Shown: positions 19,945 to 31,985, counted from the stretch's first letter. The stretch is 64,000 bases of DNA from Bacteroidales bacterium (GCA_034679225.1 JAXDBC010000134.1:974-64973); one strand, 5' to 3'. The notes: a model not told the origin generated them from the sequence alone. A program made the numbers and translations.

Positions 19945-20032
<88 letters not shown>

Positions 20033-20110: not shown

Positions 20111-20238
20111 TGCAGGAACCTCCTTAAGGGATCATCATGGGCGTCAGCCCATAATCCCTTTCCCACGGGAACATTACCCTGTCCTTAGAGATAACAAAAT
20201 CGTGCTCCGGAGGATGGGATCCATTCTATATAACCTTC

Positions 20239-20294
20239 TCTCAGCCCCTTCGTCTCTTCGTCCCTTTGTCTCTCAGTCTCTTCATCCCTTCGTC
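20239..20294. repeat. Degenerate octamer tandem repeat, 7 units, consensus about YCTTCGTC
   Basis: TCTCAGCC|CCTTCGTC|TCTTCGTC|CCTTTGTC|TCTCAGTC|TCTTCATC|CCTTCGTC. Confidence 0.8.
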
Positions 20295-20595
20295 AAATCT
20301 CCTTATCCTATAATTCCCGGTACATCTCAAAAACAACAGAATTTTTATCGTTATTCGATATCCCGCTTATTGTTTTACAACAAATTTTTTACCCGAAACG
20401 ATAAGAATTTTAGCTGTGTATCAGAGATTTGATTCGAAATTTTATTTCCGGGGGAAATGTTAAAAAAATAAAAATTGCAATATTGTACAACGGTTTTCGA
20501 AAATACGTATATTCGCCCCGATTTTTTACAAGGGAACGATTAGAAACAAATAATCGCTAATTAACAAAAAGCAAGGATTTTAAAAAAAGGAGAAA

Positions 20596-21192
20596 ATGAA
20601 AAAGAGAGTACTAATGGGATTAGCAGTCATTTCAATGATTGCCGTCCTTACAAGTTGCGCTAAGAAACCCCAGGCTGAAATTGATGCTGCCAATGCAGCA
20701 ATTGAAGCAGCCAGGACTGCTGAAGCTGCCGCTTATTTGCCTGTTGAGTTTGCAGCTCTTCAGGATTCACTGAATGCTGTCATGACTGCCATTACTGCCA
20801 AGGATTCGAAGTTATTCAAGAATTTCAATGCTGAAACTGCCAGGCTTGCAGAACTAACGACTCTTGCAAACACTGTTGCTGCAAATGTTGCTGCCAGGAA
20901 GGAAGAGGTTAAAGCAGAAGTTTCCGGCTTGCTGACATCTATCAAGACAGTCATTGCCGAGAATGCCGTTCTTATCCCGAAACTTCCAAGAGGCAAGGAA
21001 GGTGCTGCAGTTATCGAACAGATCAAGGCTGATGTCGCCACTGTTGATGCAGCTGTTGTTGAAGCTCAGAGCCTCTTCGACAAAGGTTCTTTCATGGATG
21101 CTTTGAACAAGATCACGGCAGCCAAAGAAAAAGCTGATGGTCTTAATGCTGAAGTAAAGGAAGTTCTGACAAAAGCAAGGATAAGATTCTAA
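20596..21192 (+). CDS. Ala-rich all-helical lipoprotein (DUF4398-like)
   Basis: Signal MKKRVLMGLAVISMIAVLTS-C, then PQAEIDAANAAIEAARTAEAAAY and amphipathic heptads to the C-terminus. Confidence 0.85.
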   Translation: MKKRVLMGLAVISMIAVLTSCAKKPQAEIDAANAAIEAARTAEAAAYLPVEFAALQDSLNAVMTAITAKDSKLFKNFNAETARLAELTTLANTVAANVAARKEEVKAEVSGLLTSIKTVIAENAVLIPKLPRGKEGAAVIEQIKADVATVDAAVVEAQSLFDKGSFMDALNKITAAKEKADGLNAEVKEVLTKARIRF

Positions 21193-21210
21193 TTCCAGGC
21201 TTAAAAAATC

Positions 21211-21245
21211 AGGAGATCCCCGGGCCCATACCCGGGGATTTCTTT
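21211..21245 (+). terminator. Intrinsic terminator-like hairpin inside the operon, after the lipoprotein gene
   Basis: AGGAGATCCCCGGG-CCCATA-CCCGGGGATTTCTT forms a 14-bp stem including G-U pairs, with a short U tract. Confidence 0.7.
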
Positions 21246-21259
21246 GGGTAAACCCCTGA

Positions 21260-22375
21260 ATGAGGCTTAAAAAGAAGTACATAAGGATCATTATGTGCGC
21301 TGCAATCGTAACTTTGGTCACGGTTGCAGGCTTTATTCTTGCAAGTCTTATTCCCGAACCCCCGGTAGAACAGGTCAACGGCGCCAGGATAGCCCTTTCT
21401 GAAGCGGTATCGAACGATGCTCATACTTATTCGAAGAATTTGTACGATGAAGCAAGGTCTTTGTACGATTCTGCAATGACCAGCTGGCAGAAGGAGAACA
21501 TGAGGTTCATCTGGTTCAGGGATTACAGCAGGGTGGCTGAATTTGCCGGGATGTCGGAACAGAAGGCAAGGCAGGCTAAAAGGATATCCCGGAATAATAT
21601 GACTGACCTCAATATATTACTGGGACAGAAGCTGGAGAAGCTTAATCATATTGCAGGACAAATTGATCTCAGGTTTGACGGATATCCTTTATCCTCCGAA
21701 GTCTGGAGCCGTATCTCGAAAGGCAGGATGCTTCTCAGGGAGTCGGAGCTTGCCTACAGGAGAGGCGATTTTGCCCTGGCAAAGGAAAAGGTGGACGGTT
21801 CTGAACTTCTTCTCGTGGATTCATATGAAGAGGCCATCGATCACCTCGAGGGCTATTTCGCTTCCTTCCCGAAATGGAAGCAATGGGTCGACCGCACAAT
21901 CAGGGAATCGAGACAGCACCAGAGTTATGCCGTCATTATCGACAAGTATTCCAGGAAATGTATTGTATATCTTGGAGGTATTAAAAAATATGAATATAAT
22001 GTAGAGCTTGGCAAGAATTGGGTTGGCGATAAAAGGGAGAGGGGCGACAAGGCAACACCTGAGGGTATGTACAGGGTGGTCAGGAAGTTCGGAATCGGCA
22101 GGACAAAATACCACAAGGCTCTTCTGATCGACTACCCTAACGAGACCGATAAGGCGGAATTCAGGAATGCCGTTGCTGACGGAACTCTTCCCAGGACAGC
22201 CAGGATAGGCAGTCTTATCGAAATTCATGGGGACGGGGGTAAAGGATACGACTGGACAGAAGGATGCATAGCTCTTACAAATGAAGAAATGGATGTTGTT
22301 TACAGGATAGCCCGGGAAGGTATGCCTGTTACAATAGTGGGATCGACCGTCAGCCTTGATAAACTGGATGAATGA
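21260..22375 (+). CDS. YkuD-domain (L,D-transpeptidase superfamily, YafK/DpaA-like) protein with N-terminal TM and helical stalk
   Basis: Motifs GDK..RGDKATPEGMY, YHKALLIDYPN and IEIHG...WTEGCIAL, with catalytic His and Cys present. Confidence 0.85.
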   Translation: MRLKKKYIRIIMCAAIVTLVTVAGFILASLIPEPPVEQVNGARIALSEAVSNDAHTYSKNLYDEARSLYDSAMTSWQKENMRFIWFRDYSRVAEFAGMSEQKARQAKRISRNNMTDLNILLGQKLEKLNHIAGQIDLRFDGYPLSSEVWSRISKGRMLLRESELAYRRGDFALAKEKVDGSELLLVDSYEEAIDHLEGYFASFPKWKQWVDRTIRESRQHQSYAVIIDKYSRKCIVYLGGIKKYEYNVELGKNWVGDKRERGDKATPEGMYRVVRKFGIGRTKYHKALLIDYPNETDKAEFRNAVADGTLPRTARIGSLIEIHGDGGKGYDWTEGCIALTNEEMDVVYRIAREGMPVTIVGSTVSLDKLDE

Positions 22376-23168
22376 CAACATTATGGATGACAACAGTAGC
22401 TTTATGGAAGAAGTACTTCCGGGAGACAACAGGGGAGGGGCTGCCCCGGAGGGTTTAAGATTGCTTTTTGACAAGTTGTTTGCCAGTCCCAAAGTAAGGA
22501 AAGTGATAATCAGGGCTTCCGTTATCACGGGAGGCTTGCTTGCATTCCTTTTGCTTGCTGCATTTGTTCTTTATGTTGTACCGGGGATGCAGGAGGCTGT
22601 TTCTGCACACCGGCCAAAACTGCTCAGCGATCCGGAACTTAAGGAAGACCAGAATTACAAAAAGCAGATATCCGCTCTTTCCGGGGATGTGCAAAGGCTT
22701 TCCAAAAAATACGCCTCCTATACTTCCGGACAGTCATACATTGTTATTAATACAACCGACAACAAGTTTCTTCTATACAGGAACAAGAAGCTTATACGGA
22801 CAGGATTATGCAGTTCGGGAAGTTATACCATGCTCAAGACAGAGGGTGAAAGGAAATGGATATTCAAAACTCCCAAGGGGAAATACAGGATCCAGGGGAA
22901 AATAACATCCCCGGTTTGGAGGAAGCCAGACTGGGCATTCGTGGAGGAAGGCCTTCCGATTCCGTCTGCCACTCATCCCTCGAGGTATGAATACGGCGTT
23001 CTGGGCGACTATGCGCTCAGCATTGGCGACGGCTACCTTATCCATGGAACCCTTTACAAGCGCTTCCTTGGGATGCCTGTTACCCACGGCTGCATAAGGC
23101 TTAACGACGAGGATCTGGAAGCCATCTACAACACACTGACAATAGGTTCTAAGGTTTACATCTTCTGA
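22368..23168 (+). CDS. Membrane-anchored L,D-transpeptidase
   Basis: TM segment and motifs TPKG, PVWRKPDW, YLIHGT and THGCIRL. The ATG at 22368 overlaps the upstream stop. Confidence 0.88.
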   Translation: MNDNIMDDNSSFMEEVLPGDNRGGAAPEGLRLLFDKLFASPKVRKVIIRASVITGGLLAFLLLAAFVLYVVPGMQEAVSAHRPKLLSDPELKEDQNYKKQISALSGDVQRLSKKYASYTSGQSYIVINTTDNKFLLYRNKKLIRTGLCSSGSYTMLKTEGERKWIFKTPKGKYRIQGKITSPVWRKPDWAFVEEGLPIPSATHPSRYEYGVLGDYALSIGDGYLIHGTLYKRFLGMPVTHGCIRLNDEDLEAIYNTLTIGSKVYIF

Positions 23169-23187
23169 TTTCAGACAAGACAGGAAT

Positions 23188-23991
23188 ATGGAAAACAATA
23201 TTGAAGAGGCCCAGGGGAAAAACAGGCAGACCGGTCTGATAATTACGACAGTTATAATCACAGTAATCCTGATTTTCTTTACAATCATGTCGCTGATGGC
23301 TCCCGGGAAAAAGCTGAAAGAAATAAGGCTTAAATTCAGTCCTGTGGAAACTTCGGAAAATCAGCCTGATGATAGGCTGTATTCTGACTCGGCATATATG
23401 GCCTTACTGAAGGAAAGGTCATACCTTCAGGCCAGGACAAGCATGGCAGCTACCGATTCGGTTTACATGACGCTGAATCTTTCCGACAGCACCGCGAACC
23501 TTGAGATAAGCGGTGTGACAGTTCATTCCGTAAAGATCAGCAGTTTCAGGCTTAGCGGGATATTGAAGAGAACTGATGATTATGCAATCTCATCAATGCT
23601 GGCTCAGCCGATGAATATTACCGGCGACCTGGCCACCATAAAAAAGGAACCTCTGATGGTAAAAATGGCTCCGAAGGACACGAGTGAGTTCAAGCCTGAC
23701 ATTATTCCGGATACATCGAATTATGAACCCGTTAATTATATCCTGGAGATGGATAACGGGATCAGGATATATGTTTATCAGACCACTGACACTTTGAAGA
23801 GCAACAACCGGCAACTCTTTTATTTTGATCTCAGGGACAGGCTGAATACGGCATGGCAATATGCAGGAAGAGCAGCCGTGTTCAAGGTGCCGGATTATCA
23901 TCCCTTTATAAAGATCAGGCTTCCAAAGGCTGATGCGAAAATTATATACAGGGCTCTGCCCCGCAAAGGACAGGTTGCAGTTTACATGTAA
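23188..23991 (+). CDS. Membrane-anchored protein, probable catalytically inactive YkuD-fold paralog
   Basis: N-terminal TM. Segments align by eye with the upstream LDT (IRLPKADAKIIYRAL vs IRLNDEDLEAIYNTL), but the catalytic His/Cys are absent. Confidence 0.65.
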   Translation: MENNIEEAQGKNRQTGLIITTVIITVILIFFTIMSLMAPGKKLKEIRLKFSPVETSENQPDDRLYSDSAYMALLKERSYLQARTSMAATDSVYMTLNLSDSTANLEISGVTVHSVKISSFRLSGILKRTDDYAISSMLAQPMNITGDLATIKKEPLMVKMAPKDTSEFKPDIIPDTSNYEPVNYILEMDNGIRIYVYQTTDTLKSNNRQLFYFDLRDRLNTAWQYAGRAAVFKVPDYHPFIKIRLPKADAKIIYRALPRKGQVAVYM

Positions 23992-25349: not shown

Positions 25350-25484
25350 ATAGCATTCTTTCGGTTTAGCATGGTAAATAGCGCCCGGTAAGTGGATATT
25401 TCGCGCAAATATTTCAGTAAAGATCCGTAAACCGACATTTAAAGACCTTTACCGGATACCCGGGAGTAATCCGGTATTGTATTG

Positions 25485-25573
25485 CGGAGAGAGGGGGATT
25501 CGAACCCCCGGTCCCGCGATTGCAGAACAACGGTTTTCGAGACCGCCGCATTCGACCACTCTGCCATCTCTCC
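25485..25573 (-). tRNA. tRNA-Ser(CGA)
   Basis: Minus strand reads GGAGAGATGGCAGAGTGGTCGAATGCG-GCGGT-CTCGAAA-ACCGT, then a long variable arm and GGTTCGAATCCCCCTCTCTCCG. Confidence 0.96.
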
Positions 25574-29474: not shown

Positions 29475-31985
29475 TTATCTGATGGAATTTACCTGCCTGA
29501 TAAAGGCGTCATCAAAATCTTTCTTTACTTCGATCAGAGCAGCTTTAGCGTCGGCAATGGATCTGAATTCTCCCCAGAGATATTTATAGAATCCGTCGTC
29601 GTCGGCAACTATTTCCCTTACGCCTTTATATCCCGGGAATATCCGGTCAATATCGATCGGGCTCCTGGTTGCTTTCAGCTGGATGGAGTAAACAAGCAAT
29701 GACTGCGTTGCTGTCGGTATTTTGACCGATTCACCATTGCTGGCAAGATTATTGAGTTCATACTGGTTGATAACATATGCGTTATCTAGTCCGAGTCCCT
29801 TCAGATAGCCAAGGTAAGTAACGGCATCCGACCTGTTGAAGAACACTCCGAGGGCATAGATATTTGCCGTATCTGTTTTTATGGTCCGGATAAACAGAAT
29901 TTCATCCTTAATAAGGTTGCTGAAATAGGATGAAGGCAGAACATCTTTGGTTTGCTGTAGCACAATGCTGTATTTGATTGAGCTTGGCTGCCTCAGGTGT
30001 CTTGGAGTATAGACTTCATGCCTGAGCACCACCCCTGTTCTCGGGTTGACAATCCCGAAGGTAACCCTTCTGTTGTATTTTCTTCCCTCAGGGTTGTCTG
30101 TTCCGTCAGGATTGGTATTGACGGCAACGAAATTAGATTCGCCGAAAGATTTCTTAATGAATTTGTTGCCATCGATGCCCGATTGTGTGAAGTAATCAAT
30201 CACAGCCTGTGCACGTTTATCTGCAAGTCTGGAGTTGTATTCGGTGCTCCCCTTTGAGTCGGTATATCCTGCAACCTCGATTGTAAGATCGGGGTATGTA
30301 ATAAAGATATTTTTAATCTCTTCTAGCGTTTGTTTTGCTTCGTTGTTAAGATTATATTCGTCAAAGCCAAAGAGCACATTCTGTATTGAAAGAAATTCGC
30401 CGGTATATACTTTTTCGGGTGCAAGTGACGGGTTCACTGCAAAGTATGCTCCGGTATAGTAGAGTGGCAGGTTAAGTGAGATTGTGTCGGTATTATATCC
30501 ATCGTGACTGATATATACCTCGTAGTCGCCGGGTTTTATATCGAATTTGAATGTGCCGTCGGGATTAACGGGGATATTCTGGATTACCTGATCGGTTTTG
30601 AGGTTTTTAAGTGTGATAAGAGAAAGCATCGGATTTACTTCCATCCCGTCCTCAAGGAGGATTGTTCCGGAGGCAGTTGTTATTTCATCAGCCGGATCGA
30701 TACCAACTATTGAGTAGATGTTTCTTCGGTTTGATTTGTTGTCAAAATGGCTGGCAACGAATCCGGGAGCATTATTGTTCAGGATGAAATGGCTGTTTTC
30801 CTGCACTGTATTGAATGAGTAGGGCATCCCTACCGGTTGGGTCCAAAAGCCTCCCCTGTCCTGTGATCTGAATACGTCGTGGCCGCCCATGGTAATATGA
30901 CCTACTGAGCTGAAAAGCAACGCGTTATTCTCAACATCAAAATATGGTGTGTCTTCGTCATAGGGAGTGTTGATGGTATTGCCAAGGTTAACAGGGGGTG
31001 CCCATGTTCCGTCAGCCTGCCTGGAAGATGACCAGATATCAAGATCACCCTCGCCGCCGGGCCTGTTGCTTGAGAAGTACATCGTCCGGCCGTCGGGTGT
31101 AATAAACCCGTGAGATTCCCAGTAGATGGAGTTAATCGGTTTGCCAACCGATTTTATTCTTGACCATGTGGTGTCGGTCCTTGTGCTGTAGTACAGGTTA
31201 CCGTCGCCTCCGTCATCCAGGTAAATGATAAGTGTTTTTCCGTCGCCGGTAATTGAATTCGAGTAGAATCTGTCAAAACCGCCAAGCTGCCTGGTAATGT
31301 TTGAAGGTCTTCCCCAGGTCTTGTTTTTGTAAGAGCAATAGATTTGAGTTTCTCCTTCGTTTTTAACGGTAAAGATGAACACCGAGTCGTTTTTTGCAAG
31401 CACCGGGTTGCAGGCTCCTGGGTAGTCAGCCAGCCAGGGAGCAAAGTATTCTGAAATCACCCTTACCGGTCTTTTCTTCATTTCCATCGCGTAGCGGCAG
31501 TTACGGATCTGAAGATCCACAAAGTCCATCTGGTATGTATCGGAAGGTGACAGTCTTTTCTTTAGATCGTTCAGGTAGCTGAGTGCCTGTTCGAGGCTGT
31601 CGCTCCTCTGGAATGCTATTGCCAGATACAGGTAGGTGTCGAGGCCTGCCTTGTCACCAGTCTGCCTGTATTCCTTTTCATTTGATACAACACCTCCGGC
31701 AGCCTTTTTCAGGAGCACCAGGGCTTCATCATTCTTACCCTCAAGGTTAAGGTAGCATATCCCGAGTTTGGCTGCAAGATTGTAGTTGTCGGGATACTGT
31801 TTGAGCAAGGGCTCATACATCGAAGCAGCCTTATAGTAGTTTTCATCATAGAGATAATACATATCTGCATTTTTGAAAGCCCTCTGAAATTCCTTTAAAG
31901 GCATTTGCTGCGCGCTCAGGGCTGCAAAACCACTTAGCAGAACCGCGATGATGATATATTTCTTGAAGGGGAGAAAGTGTTTCAT
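29475..31985 (-). CDS. TPR + PD40 beta-propeller + OmpA-like domain protein with C-terminal SPOR-like repeats (PorE-like)
   Basis: SPI signal ending in AQQ, PD40 motifs (YFSSNRPGG, INTPYDEDTP) and OmpA motif GYTDSKG..YN..LA..RA..GRKYNRRV. Start taken at ATG 31985. Confidence 0.8.
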   Translation of the reverse strand: MKHFLPFKKYIIIAVLLSGFAALSAQQMPLKEFQRAFKNADMYYLYDENYYKAASMYEPLLKQYPDNYNLAAKLGICYLNLEGKNDEALVLLKKAAGGVVSNEKEYRQTGDKAGLDTYLYLAIAFQRSDSLEQALSYLNDLKKRLSPSDTYQMDFVDLQIRNCRYAMEMKKRPVRVISEYFAPWLADYPGACNPVLAKNDSVFIFTVKNEGETQIYCSYKNKTWGRPSNITRQLGGFDRFYSNSITGDGKTLIIYLDDGGDGNLYYSTRTDTTWSRIKSVGKPINSIYWESHGFITPDGRTMYFSSNRPGGEGDLDIWSSSRQADGTWAPPVNLGNTINTPYDEDTPYFDVENNALLFSSVGHITMGGHDVFRSQDRGGFWTQPVGMPYSFNTVQENSHFILNNNAPGFVASHFDNKSNRRNIYSIVGIDPADEITTASGTILLEDGMEVNPMLSLITLKNLKTDQVIQNIPVNPDGTFKFDIKPGDYEVYISHDGYNTDTISLNLPLYYTGAYFAVNPSLAPEKVYTGEFLSIQNVLFGFDEYNLNNEAKQTLEEIKNIFITYPDLTIEVAGYTDSKGSTEYNSRLADKRAQAVIDYFTQSGIDGNKFIKKSFGESNFVAVNTNPDGTDNPEGRKYNRRVTFGIVNPRTGVVLRHEVYTPRHLRQPSSIKYSIVLQQTKDVLPSSYFSNLIKDEILFIRTIKTDTANIYALGVFFNRSDAVTYLGYLKGLGLDNAYVINQYELNNLASNGESVKIPTATQSLLVYSIQLKATRSPIDIDRIFPGYKGVREIVADDDGFYKYLWGEFRSIADAKAALIEVKKDFDDAFIRQVNSIR

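Follow-up and report, generated by a model that had tools for sequence, protein, structure and literature searches.

A conserved four-gene cassette of Bacteroidota encoding a helical lipoprotein, two YkuD proteins and an orphan membrane protein: a candidate module for lipoprotein attachment to peptidoglycan

In Escherichia coli, LdtA, LdtB and LdtC attach the lipoprotein Lpp to peptidoglycan, and DpaA/LdtF detaches it (Winkle 2021). Four neighbouring cell-envelope genes in a genome of an uncultured Bacteroidales bacterium raise the question of whether a comparable tether is encoded there. The genes lie in a window of 64,000 nucleotides, the whole stretch of DNA that was analysed. An initial annotation had proposed that they may encode a lipoprotein, its attaching and detaching enzymes and an adaptor, or else a trans-periplasmic LD-crosslinking complex, and had known of no Lpp equivalent described in Bacteroidota. 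Our literature searches, too, yielded no description of such a system for Bacteroidota and no publication on the cassette, and a whole-genome scan with the Pfam LPP family (PF04728) gave no match, although the E. coli control did match.

Gene order and distribution

The cassette occupies positions 20596-23991 on the plus strand. All four open reading frames, here called g1 to g4, are present, co-oriented and closely spaced as initially annotated, with median gaps of 97 nt (g1-g2), 8 nt (g2-g3) and 12 nt (g3-g4). Conservation of the gene neighbourhood had been set beforehand as a refutation test of the tether proposal. The order g1-g2-g3-g4 was kept in 18 of 20 loci of the genus, in 32 of 34 loci of further families within the order and in 6/6 loci from other classes, and in all four exceptions the locus was cut by a contig end. 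The fixed order spans at least three classes of Bacteroidota and persists outside the genus, where the flanking genes change.

It is very improbable that the four genes are unrelated neighbours in a chance or lineage-specific arrangement. Within the genus, a NupC-like gene downstream of the cassette is syntenic too, which shows that synteny over a short distance may by itself say little; nothing else beyond the prior speaks for this explanation. However, the same arrangement recurs within the order and, beyond it, in other classes, also where both flanks change, which places the adjacency of g1 to g4 far beyond chance. Presence and absence of g1 and g4 match as well: among 301 genomes of the order, strong matches were obtained in 37 for g4, in 39 for g1 and in 36 for both, and the four genomes outside the overlap are contig-edge or divergent cases. 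In addition, g1, which was single-copy in this sample, shares a domain with g2 (see below). Chance adjacency is refuted by the order-wide and cross-class synteny and by the co-occurrence of g1 and g4.

The cassette is carried by about 13% of the sampled genomes of the order (40/301) and by 11 of 401 genomes in a sample of the phylum, and therefore does not serve the phylum at large as a tether. Among 32 loci that belong to other families of the order, 18 have a divergently oriented gene for an ECF-type sigma factor upstream of g1, which suggests stress control.

The lipoprotein and its lysine residues

The first gene (g1, 20596-21192, plus strand) encodes a helical lipoprotein whose family lacks an annotation and is related to DUF4398. 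Its signal peptide ends in the lipobox L-T-S-C21 (20596-20658, plus strand; hydrophobic span at residues 3-23), and the lipobox Cys is present in all 56 sequences that cover it and in 120/120 listed homologues. No enzyme family in Pfam was matched, in line with the initial description of a lipoprotein lacking a catalytic motif; the best Pfam matches, all below cut-off, included BBH37 (19.6 bits) and DUF4398 (PF14346, 16.3 bits versus a cut-off of 27.9). The nearest ESM Atlas clusters were also named DUF4398 (scores 0.95 and 0.94), which we take as a lead only. Database searches returned 2372 homologues at E<=1e-5. Among the 120 of them that were listed, none had a Pfam domain, and those named by their source were mostly called "hypothetical protein". 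DUF4398 comprises helical lipoproteins; a table in PMC5406399 assigns Leptospira LipL71 both this domain and a LysM domain that binds peptidoglycan.

The likeness to Lpp claimed initially holds for the lipobox and fails in other respects. Neither g1 nor the host genome has a match to the Pfam LPP family, and g1 has 198 residues, versus 58 for mature Lpp with its C-terminal Lys58 (available text of PMC12274547). We counted residues in a set of 58 g1 relatives (6 from other classes) and in the 120 listed homologues. Of the relatives, 23 ended in Lys, 19 in Arg and 16 in some other residue, and none of the six sequences from other classes ended in Lys; among the listed homologues, 45 did and 75 did not. 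The Lpp-type C-terminal lysine is thus not conserved in the g1 family.

The protein in the window ends in Phe, with K193 followed by the rest of a short basic tail (K-A-R-I-R-F, 21172-21189, plus strand). K193 was found in 55 of the 58 relatives and in all 120 listed homologues, while three of the six other-class sequences lacked it; the net charge of the tail was always at least +1. Such tails bring to mind Dickeya OutB, a non-Lpp protein that L,D-transpeptidases fasten to peptidoglycan via a short basic tail with Lys as its last residue (available text of PMC12274547). According to the same text, the "Lpp box" tolerates many substitutions, while OutB needs its C-terminal lysine. Many g1 relatives do end in similar tails, for example K-V-K-G-K-K, but the mode of OutB cannot be general for the family, because the last residue of g1 is often Arg or Phe.

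The sole strictly lysine-specific position of g1 is K134, in the loop P131-R-G-K134-E-G (20986-21003, plus strand). It was Lys in 57/57 relatives and in 120/120 listed homologues, and never Arg, whereas position 132 toggles between the two residues (28 Lys and 29 Arg; 16 and 104 among the listed homologues). An invariant lysine next to a position that accepts either residue would be expected if it is the amine that counts rather than the charge. The loop, with consensus P-[K/R]-G-K-E-G, coincides with a 7-residue gap of the homologous N-terminal domain of g2. A strictly conserved lysine may also take part in a salt bridge or belong to a binding site.

Between g1 and g2, a G+C-rich hairpin with a U-rich run after it resembles a terminator or attenuator (21212-21246, plus strand; -24.0 kcal/mol). 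A strict terminator pattern was present in 32 of 52 g1-g2 gaps, versus 4 sites in a control of 140,695 nt, the coding sequence of g2-g4, and a hairpin at least as strong as -10.7 kcal/mol in 51 of the 52 gaps. The terminator-like hairpin sets g1 apart from g2, g3 and g4, which follow one another at intervals of about 10 nt, and its conservation suggests a higher output of g1 than of the enzymes.

Two types of YkuD protein and an orphan neighbour

The membrane-anchored products of g2, g3 and g4 each have one N-terminal hydrophobic stretch (Kyte-Doolittle, 19 residues, maximum 2.5-2.7). In agreement with the initial annotation, g2 and g3 are YkuD proteins (PF03734, cut-off 23.4 bits) with intact catalytic His and Cys, and they belong to different subtypes.

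The 270-residue protein encoded by g3 (22356-23168, plus strand) appears to be a canonical L,D-transpeptidase. Candidate starts are a TTG at 22356 and ATG codons at 22368 and 22383, so that the coordinates of its 5' end are uncertain, and the N-terminus is variable in the alignment. The YkuD domain (residues 127-269, 22734-23162, plus strand; 82.2 bits, E 7.1e-23) contains H230 and the motif T-H-G-C246-I-R248-L, which conforms to [S/T]-H-G-C-x-R; residues H230, T243, H244, G245, C246 and R248 are invariant in 37/37 relatives and in 6/6 sequences from other classes. The nearest solved chains are the L,D-transpeptidase 4lzh and Bacillus subtilis YkuD. Judged by its sequence, g3 has all the features typical of an active L,D-transpeptidase, Arg at the second position after the catalytic Cys (Cys+2) among them.

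The g2 protein (21260-22375, plus strand; 371 residues) combines two domains. Its N-terminal periplasmic helical domain (residues 27-200, 21338-21859, plus strand) is homologous to the whole mature g1: the g1 and g2 profiles align over 172 columns (hhalign, probability 98.4%, E 5.5e-15), and reciprocal HMM cross-matches were seen in most loci. Like g1, it matches DUF4398 weakly (17.1 bits, below the 27.9 cut-off). The YkuD domain follows (residues 223-359, 21926-22336, plus strand; 53.5 bits, E 5e-14). H323 and C336 are invariant in 37/37 aligned relatives, and Cys+2 is Ala (A338 in the window) in 36 of them and in 6/6 sequences from other classes, and Gly in one. In DpaA-like proteins this position is Ala or Asn, and in transpeptidases Arg (Winkle 2021, section 11). 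By this signature, the active site of g2 is of the hydrolase type.

Profile searches gave 8ikr (E 2e-9), 7o21 (4e-9), Campylobacter Pgp2 (6xj6 and 6xj7, 3e-8) and 4xzz (7e-6) as the nearest solved relatives of g2. We take 7o21 to be Bdellovibrio Bd1075 and 4xzz to be Helicobacter Csd6. Only the YkuD part aligns with Pgp2, Csd6 and 7o21, and the membrane anchor and g1-like domain of g2 are unmatched; to our knowledge, none of these enzymes has been reported to have genes for a lipoprotein, a transpeptidase and a catalytically dead paralogue as neighbours. An assignment of g2 as DpaA equivalog was rejected, as its score of 31.2 bits is far below the cut-off of 365 for DpaA/LdtF/YafK (NF040599). 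The initial label "DpaA-like" is justified for the Ala at Cys+2 and not for equivalogy. Since the named solved relative is an L,D-carboxypeptidase, trimming of stems by g2 is as likely as detachment of a protein, and hydrolysis of a lysine-mDAP bond is inseparable by sequence from L,D-carboxypeptidase activity.

The relatedness to Pgp2 (E 3e-8) also raises the idea of a cell-shape module, in which g2 would, like Csd6 and Pgp2, trim stems locally and thereby determine cell shape or curvature, and would be positioned or balanced by g1, g3 and g4. DpaA-like proteins are grouped with Csd6 and Pgp2 in MEROPS C82.A01 (Winkle 2021), and shape is the sort of trait that a patchy distribution would fit. 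We nevertheless consider this role improbable, as nothing in the present data ties the cassette to shape, and a dedicated lipoprotein, an invariant lysine and a transpeptidase with a putative dead copy would be left unexplained.

The fourth gene (g4, 23188-23991, plus strand) encodes a 267-residue protein with a membrane anchor; its orphan family is small, with 603 representatives in a set of 1.84 billion proteins. Outside the membrane anchor, no PDB sequence was matched, and the protein has no match in Pfam or NCBIfam; none of 38 g4 relatives matched Pfam YkuD. Residues D90, G109, P141, A161 and P162 are invariant, and no His or Cys is invariant or nearly so in the 38 sequences. The best-conserved motif, E-P-L-M-V-K-M-A-P-K-D-T-S-E (residues 154-167, 23647-23688, plus strand), was aligned by hhalign opposite S-P-V-W-R-K-P-D-W-A-F-V-E-E of g3. 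The alignment of g4 with g3 is collinear but weak (46.8% for full proteins, 21% for periplasmic parts); one of 100 block shuffles reached its score, and reversed controls scored 14.4 and 14.7 versus 28.5. The initial view of g4 as an anchored protein devoid of catalytic residues was borne out, and its YkuD-like segments appear real but are weak; g4 is possibly a catalytically dead paralogue of g3, a weakly supported assignment.

Covalent attachment and a non-covalent alternative

We tentatively prefer, at somewhat less than even odds, the interpretation that the cassette is a self-contained periplasmic module which reversibly fastens g1 to peptidoglycan. In the proposed mechanism, g1 would be produced in excess over the enzymes. 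g3 would form an acyl-enzyme with a tetrapeptide stem and pass the tripeptide on to the epsilon-amine of a lysine in g1, most likely K134, with K193 as second candidate. g2 may dock on g1 by its g1-like domain and either hydrolyse the link or remove tetrapeptide donors, and g4, as a degenerate copy of g3, may be its non-catalytic partner.

The link would then run through an internal lysine, as reported for Coxiella LimB, and not through a C-terminal lysine as in Lpp. According to the available text of PMC12729407, LimB27 of Coxiella burnetii is linked to peptidoglycan via the internal Lys21, and Lpg1810 via Lys-Thr. LimB27 thus exemplifies for a non-Lpp lipoprotein the mode that we propose, hypothetically, for K134 of g1. 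The likeness drawn here is one of mode; unlike for g1-g4, no cassette is described in the same text, and no enzyme that attaches LimB is known. With the E. coli Lpp system, the cassette has in common a small helical lipoprotein, a YkuD protein of transpeptidase type and another of hydrolase type without Arg after the Cys. It differs in having membrane-anchored enzymes whose genes adjoin that of the lipoprotein, in the extra g1-like domain of g2, and in the fourth, non-catalytic gene.

Several observations speak for covalent attachment: the synteny, the co-occurrence of g1 and g4, the opposite enzyme types, the homology of g1 with the N-domain of g2, the K134 pattern, the terminator-like hairpin, and a genome with no Lpp gene and a third YkuD gene. 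Links via internal or near-terminal lysines are documented (available text of PMC12729407). Against it stand the missing Lpp-type C-terminal lysine, the loss of K193 in half of the other-class sequences, the possibility that g2, as a relative of Pgp2 with a low DpaA score, only trims stems, the inner-membrane anchoring of g2, g3 and g4 alike, the patchy distribution, the other roles open to a conserved lysine, and six OmpA-family domains in the genome, which could serve non-covalent binding. Of the points that bear on the tether proposal, the synteny and the opposite enzyme types were supported, a DpaA equivalog and an Lpp-style C-terminal lysine were not, and the evidence on g4 is weak.

A close rival, almost as likely as covalent attachment, is a non-covalent complex that adjusts cross-linking under envelope stress. 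Here g3 would make 3-3 cross-links, g2 would act as L,D-carboxypeptidase and trim tetra- to tripeptides, g1 would be a regulator or scaffold pairing with the N-domain of g2, and g4 a pseudo-enzyme regulating g3. By analogy with LpoA and LpoB, which bridge from the outer to the inner membrane for penicillin-binding proteins, g1 possibly bridges the two membranes. Pgp2, 7o21 and 4xzz among the solved relatives of g2, the stress control suggested by the sigma factor gene and the lack of a conserved Lpp-type C-terminal lysine in g1 are consistent with this alternative, and pairing of paralogous helical domains would fit the homology of g1 and g2. Cross-linking is also the commonest role of YkuD enzymes (available text of PMC12729407). 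On the other hand, an excess of g1, as suggested by the hairpin, would be unusual for a one-to-one regulator, and K134 is never Arg despite the toggling at the adjacent basic position. Moreover, the third YkuD gene, which is larger and lies elsewhere in the genome, could do the general cross-linking, and strict one-to-one co-inheritance is, as a general argument, typical of dedicated enzyme-substrate pairs.

If covalent attachment is correct, g1 would represent a new family of helical lipoproteins, linked via the invariant internal K134 by its own membrane-anchored L,D-transpeptidase. The releasing hydrolase would recognise g1 via a built-in copy of g1's own fold, the pseudo-transpeptidase g4 would tune the system, and the neighbouring ECF sigma factor would control it in many lineages. 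Taken jointly with the K134 link, release by g2, tuning by g4 and ECF control, the cassette may be, with roughly one chance in three by our estimate, the first dedicated substrate-writer-eraser-adaptor cassette outside Proteobacteria that links a lipoprotein covalently to peptidoglycan.

The g1-g4 cassette and its distribution

Four co-oriented open reading frames were found in the window (genome G000, contig C134, bases 974-64973) exactly where the initial annotation had placed them, at 20596-23991 on the + strand. They comprise a lipoprotein ORF (g1, 20596-21192, +), a membrane-anchored hydrolase-type YkuD protein (g2, 21260-22375, +), a membrane-anchored transpeptidase-type YkuD protein (g3, 22356-23168, +) and a membrane-anchored orphan (g4, 23188-23991, +). 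Each of the last three contains only one hydrophobic stretch, near the N-terminus (residues 6-34 in g2, 49-83 in g3 and 12-41 in g4) and preceded by basic residues, so that the simplest predicted topology is an inner-membrane anchor with the bulk of the protein in the periplasm.

Two tRNA-Ser genes enclose the cassette together with a downstream gene for a NupC-like transporter: tRNA-Ser(GCT) upstream of g1 (19945-20032, +) and tRNA-Ser(CGA) beyond the transporter gene (25484-25573, -). A RumA-like gene is also found upstream. An Rfam scan of the window detected nothing but the two tRNA genes. About 6 kb downstream of the cassette, an 866-aa open frame contains an OmpA-family peptidoglycan-binding domain (30102-30374, -, 70.1 bits).

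Conservation of the cassette was analyzed at three taxonomic levels. The genus consists of uncultured Bacteroidales MAGs, and a g4 query matched 23 of its 24 other genomes and none of 16 genomes from other families in the order. The only one of the 24 that lacked a match is a genome of 86% completeness. One match (G022:C26:178557-179324) is broken by two TGA and four TAA codons and is an apparent pseudogene. Among 20 of the 23 matching loci that were examined, 18 contained g1-g2-g3-g4 in unchanged order, with protein identities down to 44-58%, and the remaining two were cut by contig ends. In one of the 18 complete loci (L021), the g1 match begins only from residue 30.

Among 301 genomes of the order, a g4 profile detected the family in 40 (30 of 208 genera). 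All 34 strong matches outside the genus were inspected; 32 showed the four genes with order and strand unchanged, and the other two were contig fragments bearing g4 alone. No NupC-like or RumA-like flank was detected at any of the 34 loci, so it is the cassette that is kept and not its neighbourhood. In the phylum sample, 11 of 401 genomes had a g4 match. Nine of these were outside the order and all were labelled as other classes; among the genomes listed, none from another order of the same class had a match. Six of the nine loci were examined, and each had the four genes in identical order. A contig labelled as belonging to a Chloroflexota MAG (L143) bears a g4 homologue with 52% identity, the level of members of the Bacteroidales genus, and is probably mis-binned. 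Some of the matching genomes consist of one contig (G053, G177, G300, G327 and G359), a hint that isolates with the cassette exist.

Presence of g1 is closely matched to presence of g4. A g1 profile gave 39 strong matches over the same 301 genomes, all full-length and single-copy, and 36 of these 39 genomes were among the 37 with a strong g4 match. The four mismatches comprised a g1 at a contig edge (G033), a g4 whose contig is 1.9 kb long (G227) and, from a single family, two genomes with a weak g4 match (G145 and G265). The comparison of gene neighbourhoods called for in the initial annotation bears out the synteny at all three levels. The cassette is a genuine, ancient module whose genes are tightly coupled.

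Two YkuD enzymes and an orphan protein

Both enzymes match the Pfam YkuD model above its cut-off (g2 53.5 bits, g3 82.2 bits). H323 and C336 of g2, as well as H230, H244 and C246 of g3, are kept without exception in 37 aligned sequences. According to section 11 of Winkle et al. (2021), most DpaA-like proteins carry Ala or Asn at the second position after the catalytic Cys, where Arg is found in transpeptidases; the available portion of a 2025 review (PMC12729407) gives the same signature for DpaA. This residue is Ala in 36 of 37 g2 sequences and Arg in 37 of 37 g3 sequences, and in 6/6 sequences from other classes in either case. In profile searches of solved structures, the YkuD part of g2 was nearest to 8ikr, 7o21, Pgp2 and 4xzz (E 2e-9 to 7e-6), and that of g3 to the L,D-transpeptidase 4lzh and B. 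subtilis YkuD. From the Cys+2 residues and the nearest structures, we therefore assign g3 to the transpeptidase type and g2 to the hydrolase type, in agreement with the earlier description of two YkuD enzymes of different subtypes with intact His and Cys.

The more specific label of g2 as DpaA-like agrees with the Ala at Cys+2, but not with the DpaA equivalog model, against which g2 scores 31.2 bits, far under the 365-bit cut-off. Either detachment of a protein from the wall, as by DpaA, or trimming of D-Ala, as by Pgp2, would be compatible with the g2 sequence. Besides g2 and g3, the genome has one further YkuD gene, within a 571-aa ORF on contig C3. This third domain (G000:C3:1150-1659, -), outside the window, is the best-scoring of the genome (94.5 bits) and belongs to a candidate L,D-transpeptidase for general cross-linking.

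The orphan g4 had no Pfam or NCBIfam match. Few proteins belong to its family: 603 representatives were found at E<=1e-3 in a set of 1.84 billion proteins, and the best 150 of the 603 are 187-324 aa long, with no fused forms. The initial annotation had considered g4 a dead YkuD paralogue. Loss of the catalytic residues is borne out, since the invariant residues (D90, G109, P141, A161 and P162) include neither His nor Cys; the likeness to YkuD is weak. In hhalign, g4 and g3 are collinear along the whole periplasmic part (probability 46.8%, E 2e-4). The matched segments are the helix that follows the anchor, the first strands (D-S-I-x-L-x-I-N-L with Y-L-V-I-N-T), the motif E-P-x-x-V-K-x-A-P-K-D-T with S-P-V-W-x-K-P-D-W, and the last strand D-A-K-x-I-Y-R-A-L-P with D-E-D-L-E-x-V-Y-x-T-L. 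Without the membrane anchors, the two proteins align at a score of 28.5 (probability 21%), compared to 14.4 and 14.7 for reversed controls and a mean of 14.2 (sd 3.4) for 100 block shuffles, one of which reaches 28.5. A g3 HMM also gave weak matches to many g4 sequences at both ends, in register. It is thus plausible, though unproven, that g4 is a dead paralogue of g3. There was no real alignment of g4 with the g2 profile, and a PDB profile search matched only the membrane-anchor region, in unrelated proteins. The ESM Atlas holds no model of g4; its only named neighbour there (rank 30, score 0.81, YkuD on 33% of members) is a lead only.

Expression of the cassette

The enzyme genes are tightly packed, with median gaps of 8 nt for g2-g3 and 12 nt for g3-g4 (32 loci), and the g1-g2 gap is wider, at a median of 97 nt. 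The window's copy of this gap contains a G+C-rich hairpin (-24 kcal/mol) with a U-rich run after it (21212-21246). A hairpin of -10.7 kcal/mol or stronger was found in 51 of 52 g1-g2 gaps, and a strict terminator pattern in 32 of the 52, versus 4 occurrences in 140,695 nt of coding sequence from g2-g4. Gaps and hairpin together suggest that g1 could be expressed alone and in excess, and that the enzymes would be served by read-through or a separate start.

The RNA data comprised contigs from four metatranscriptome runs, each of a different study (X15-X18). Contigs from X15 cover g1 without differences (20605-21207). Contigs of 90-99% likeness bridge g1 into g2 (X18 record 23, 20544-21357), g2 into g3 (X17 record 20 and X16 record 15) and g3 into g4 (X16 record 15 and X17 record 21). 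Cassette sequence of relatives is thus present in RNA libraries; DNA admixture is possible, so that neither transcription nor a single transcript is proven. No X15 contig covered g2-g4, and in X17 and X18 the word depth was higher on g1 than on g2-g4 contigs; read from RNA runs alone, these values give no basis for ranking the genes. Two g1 contigs stop short of the hairpin, at 21199 (X17) and 21207 (X15), which is not proof of an RNA end. Upstream of g1, X16 record 10, from a related strain, has 39 other letters in place of the 119 nt at 20165-20285, so the intergenic region differs between strains. Habitat labels of the DNA runs were anaerobic digester, sludge and bioreactor.

Bacteroidota promoters differ from the sigma-70 type, and a sigma-70 promoter scan of the window is not meaningful. 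In 18 of the 32 loci from other families, g1 is preceded, at about 200 nt, by a divergent gene for an ECF-type sigma factor (L054:1871-2440, -; L062:7158-7553, +; and 16 more among L052-L085). The one representative scanned has Sigma70_r2 and r4_2 domains, and in 15 of the 18 loci the sigma gene is followed by a conserved 107-155-aa ORF without Pfam match. Neither the window nor any of 100 genus loci contains this pair. We rejected the sigma factor as part of the window's system, as no homologue was found at E<=1e-10 in the window and these loci; its best match in the window's own genome is 28% identical.

The lipoprotein and its possible link to peptidoglycan

The signal peptide of g1 ends in L-T-S-C21. 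All Pfam matches were below threshold (DUF4398, 16.3 bits versus 27.9), a profile search of solved structures with g1 gave nothing significant, the ESM Atlas holds no model, and no internal duplication was detected. None of 120 listed homologues (of 2372 in the database) has a Pfam domain, and the named ones are mostly 'hypothetical'. Mature g1 (residues 17-195) aligns over its whole length to residues 27-200 of g2 (hhalign probability 98.4%, E 5.5e-15, 172 columns). We therefore conclude from this profile alignment that the hydrolase carries a copy of the lipoprotein fold, placed after the membrane anchor and before the catalytic domain. In g1, the loop P131-[K/R]-G-K134-E-G sits opposite a 7-residue gap of g2.

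Lysines of g1 were compared in 58 sequences (the window, 19 genus, 32 order and 6 other classes) and in the 120 database homologues. K134 is lysine in 57/57 and 120/120. At the nearby position 132, the first set is split between K (28) and R (29), and the homologues have K in 16 cases against R in 104. At K72, lysine is found in 52 sequences and arginine in 5. K193 is kept in 55/58 and 120/120, and the tail past it has a median of 5 residues and is net positive in every case. Three genus members (L021, L026 and L027) have tails lengthened by 4 to 6 A-K-P-A copies ending in K-K, which look like a flexible Pro/Ala/Lys spacer; a fourth (L030) has one short copy (K-V-K-G-G-K-A-K-P-A-A-K-K).

In Proteobacteria, several envelope proteins are known to be covalently fastened to the cell wall, among them Lpp, LimB, beta-barrel proteins and OutB. 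The initial annotation had envisaged attachment in the manner of Braun lipoprotein. According to the sections available of PMC12274547, a C-terminal lysine is necessary for attachment in Lpp and OutB. The g1 family ends in lysine in only 23/58 and 45/120 sequences and in none of the 6 from other classes; the last residue is Arg in 19 and 75, and Phe in the window and 8 others. We therefore rejected the C-terminal lysine as a general g1 anchor. The portion available of PMC12729407 describes an internal lysine in LimB27 (Lys21) and a near-terminal one in Lpg1810, and by analogy g1 may be linked through either kind, K134 being the candidate internal counterpart. The genome has no Lpp family gene and six OmpA-family domains.

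We tentatively read the cassette as a system for covalent, reversible tethering of g1. The alternative, in which g1 would act non-covalently to regulate cross-linking and trimming, is a serious one that we hold with somewhat less conviction. The covalent reading is slightly favoured because K134 is invariant and never Arg, the architecture points to excess expression of g1, and the genes are inherited one-to-one. A role in cell shape ranks behind both and appears improbable.

In a literature that included few subscription journals and no supplements, searches on transpeptidase/YkuD proteins with Bacteroidota lipoprotein tethers retrieved no paper on the cassette, and DUF4398 is mentioned in three papers, none of which addresses its function. 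No word starting with 'Bacteroid' occurs in the 2025 review of L,D-transpeptidases (PMC12729407). The accessible part of the preprint by Witwinowski et al. limits Lpp to four orders, a subclade of Gammaproteobacteria. Winkle et al. (2021), in the part available, report DpaA-like proteins in groups without Lpp, Bacteroidetes among them, and leave their substrates open. Most genomes lack the cassette, which about 13% of the order sample carry, and the window's host is uncultured. The cassette provides a concrete candidate substrate encoded beside a DpaA-like enzyme, and with a named residue to mutate and predicted adduct peptides, the tethering question can be put to a direct test. In the window's protein, the predicted peptides are G-K-E-G-A-A-V-I-E-Q-I-K for a link at K134 and V-L-T-K-A-R for one at K193. 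Should the link prove non-covalent, the strict co-inheritance of a lipoprotein, a hydrolase with a copy of its fold, a transpeptidase and an orphan is new as far as the literature was searched, as are the unannotated lipoprotein family and the orphan family themselves.
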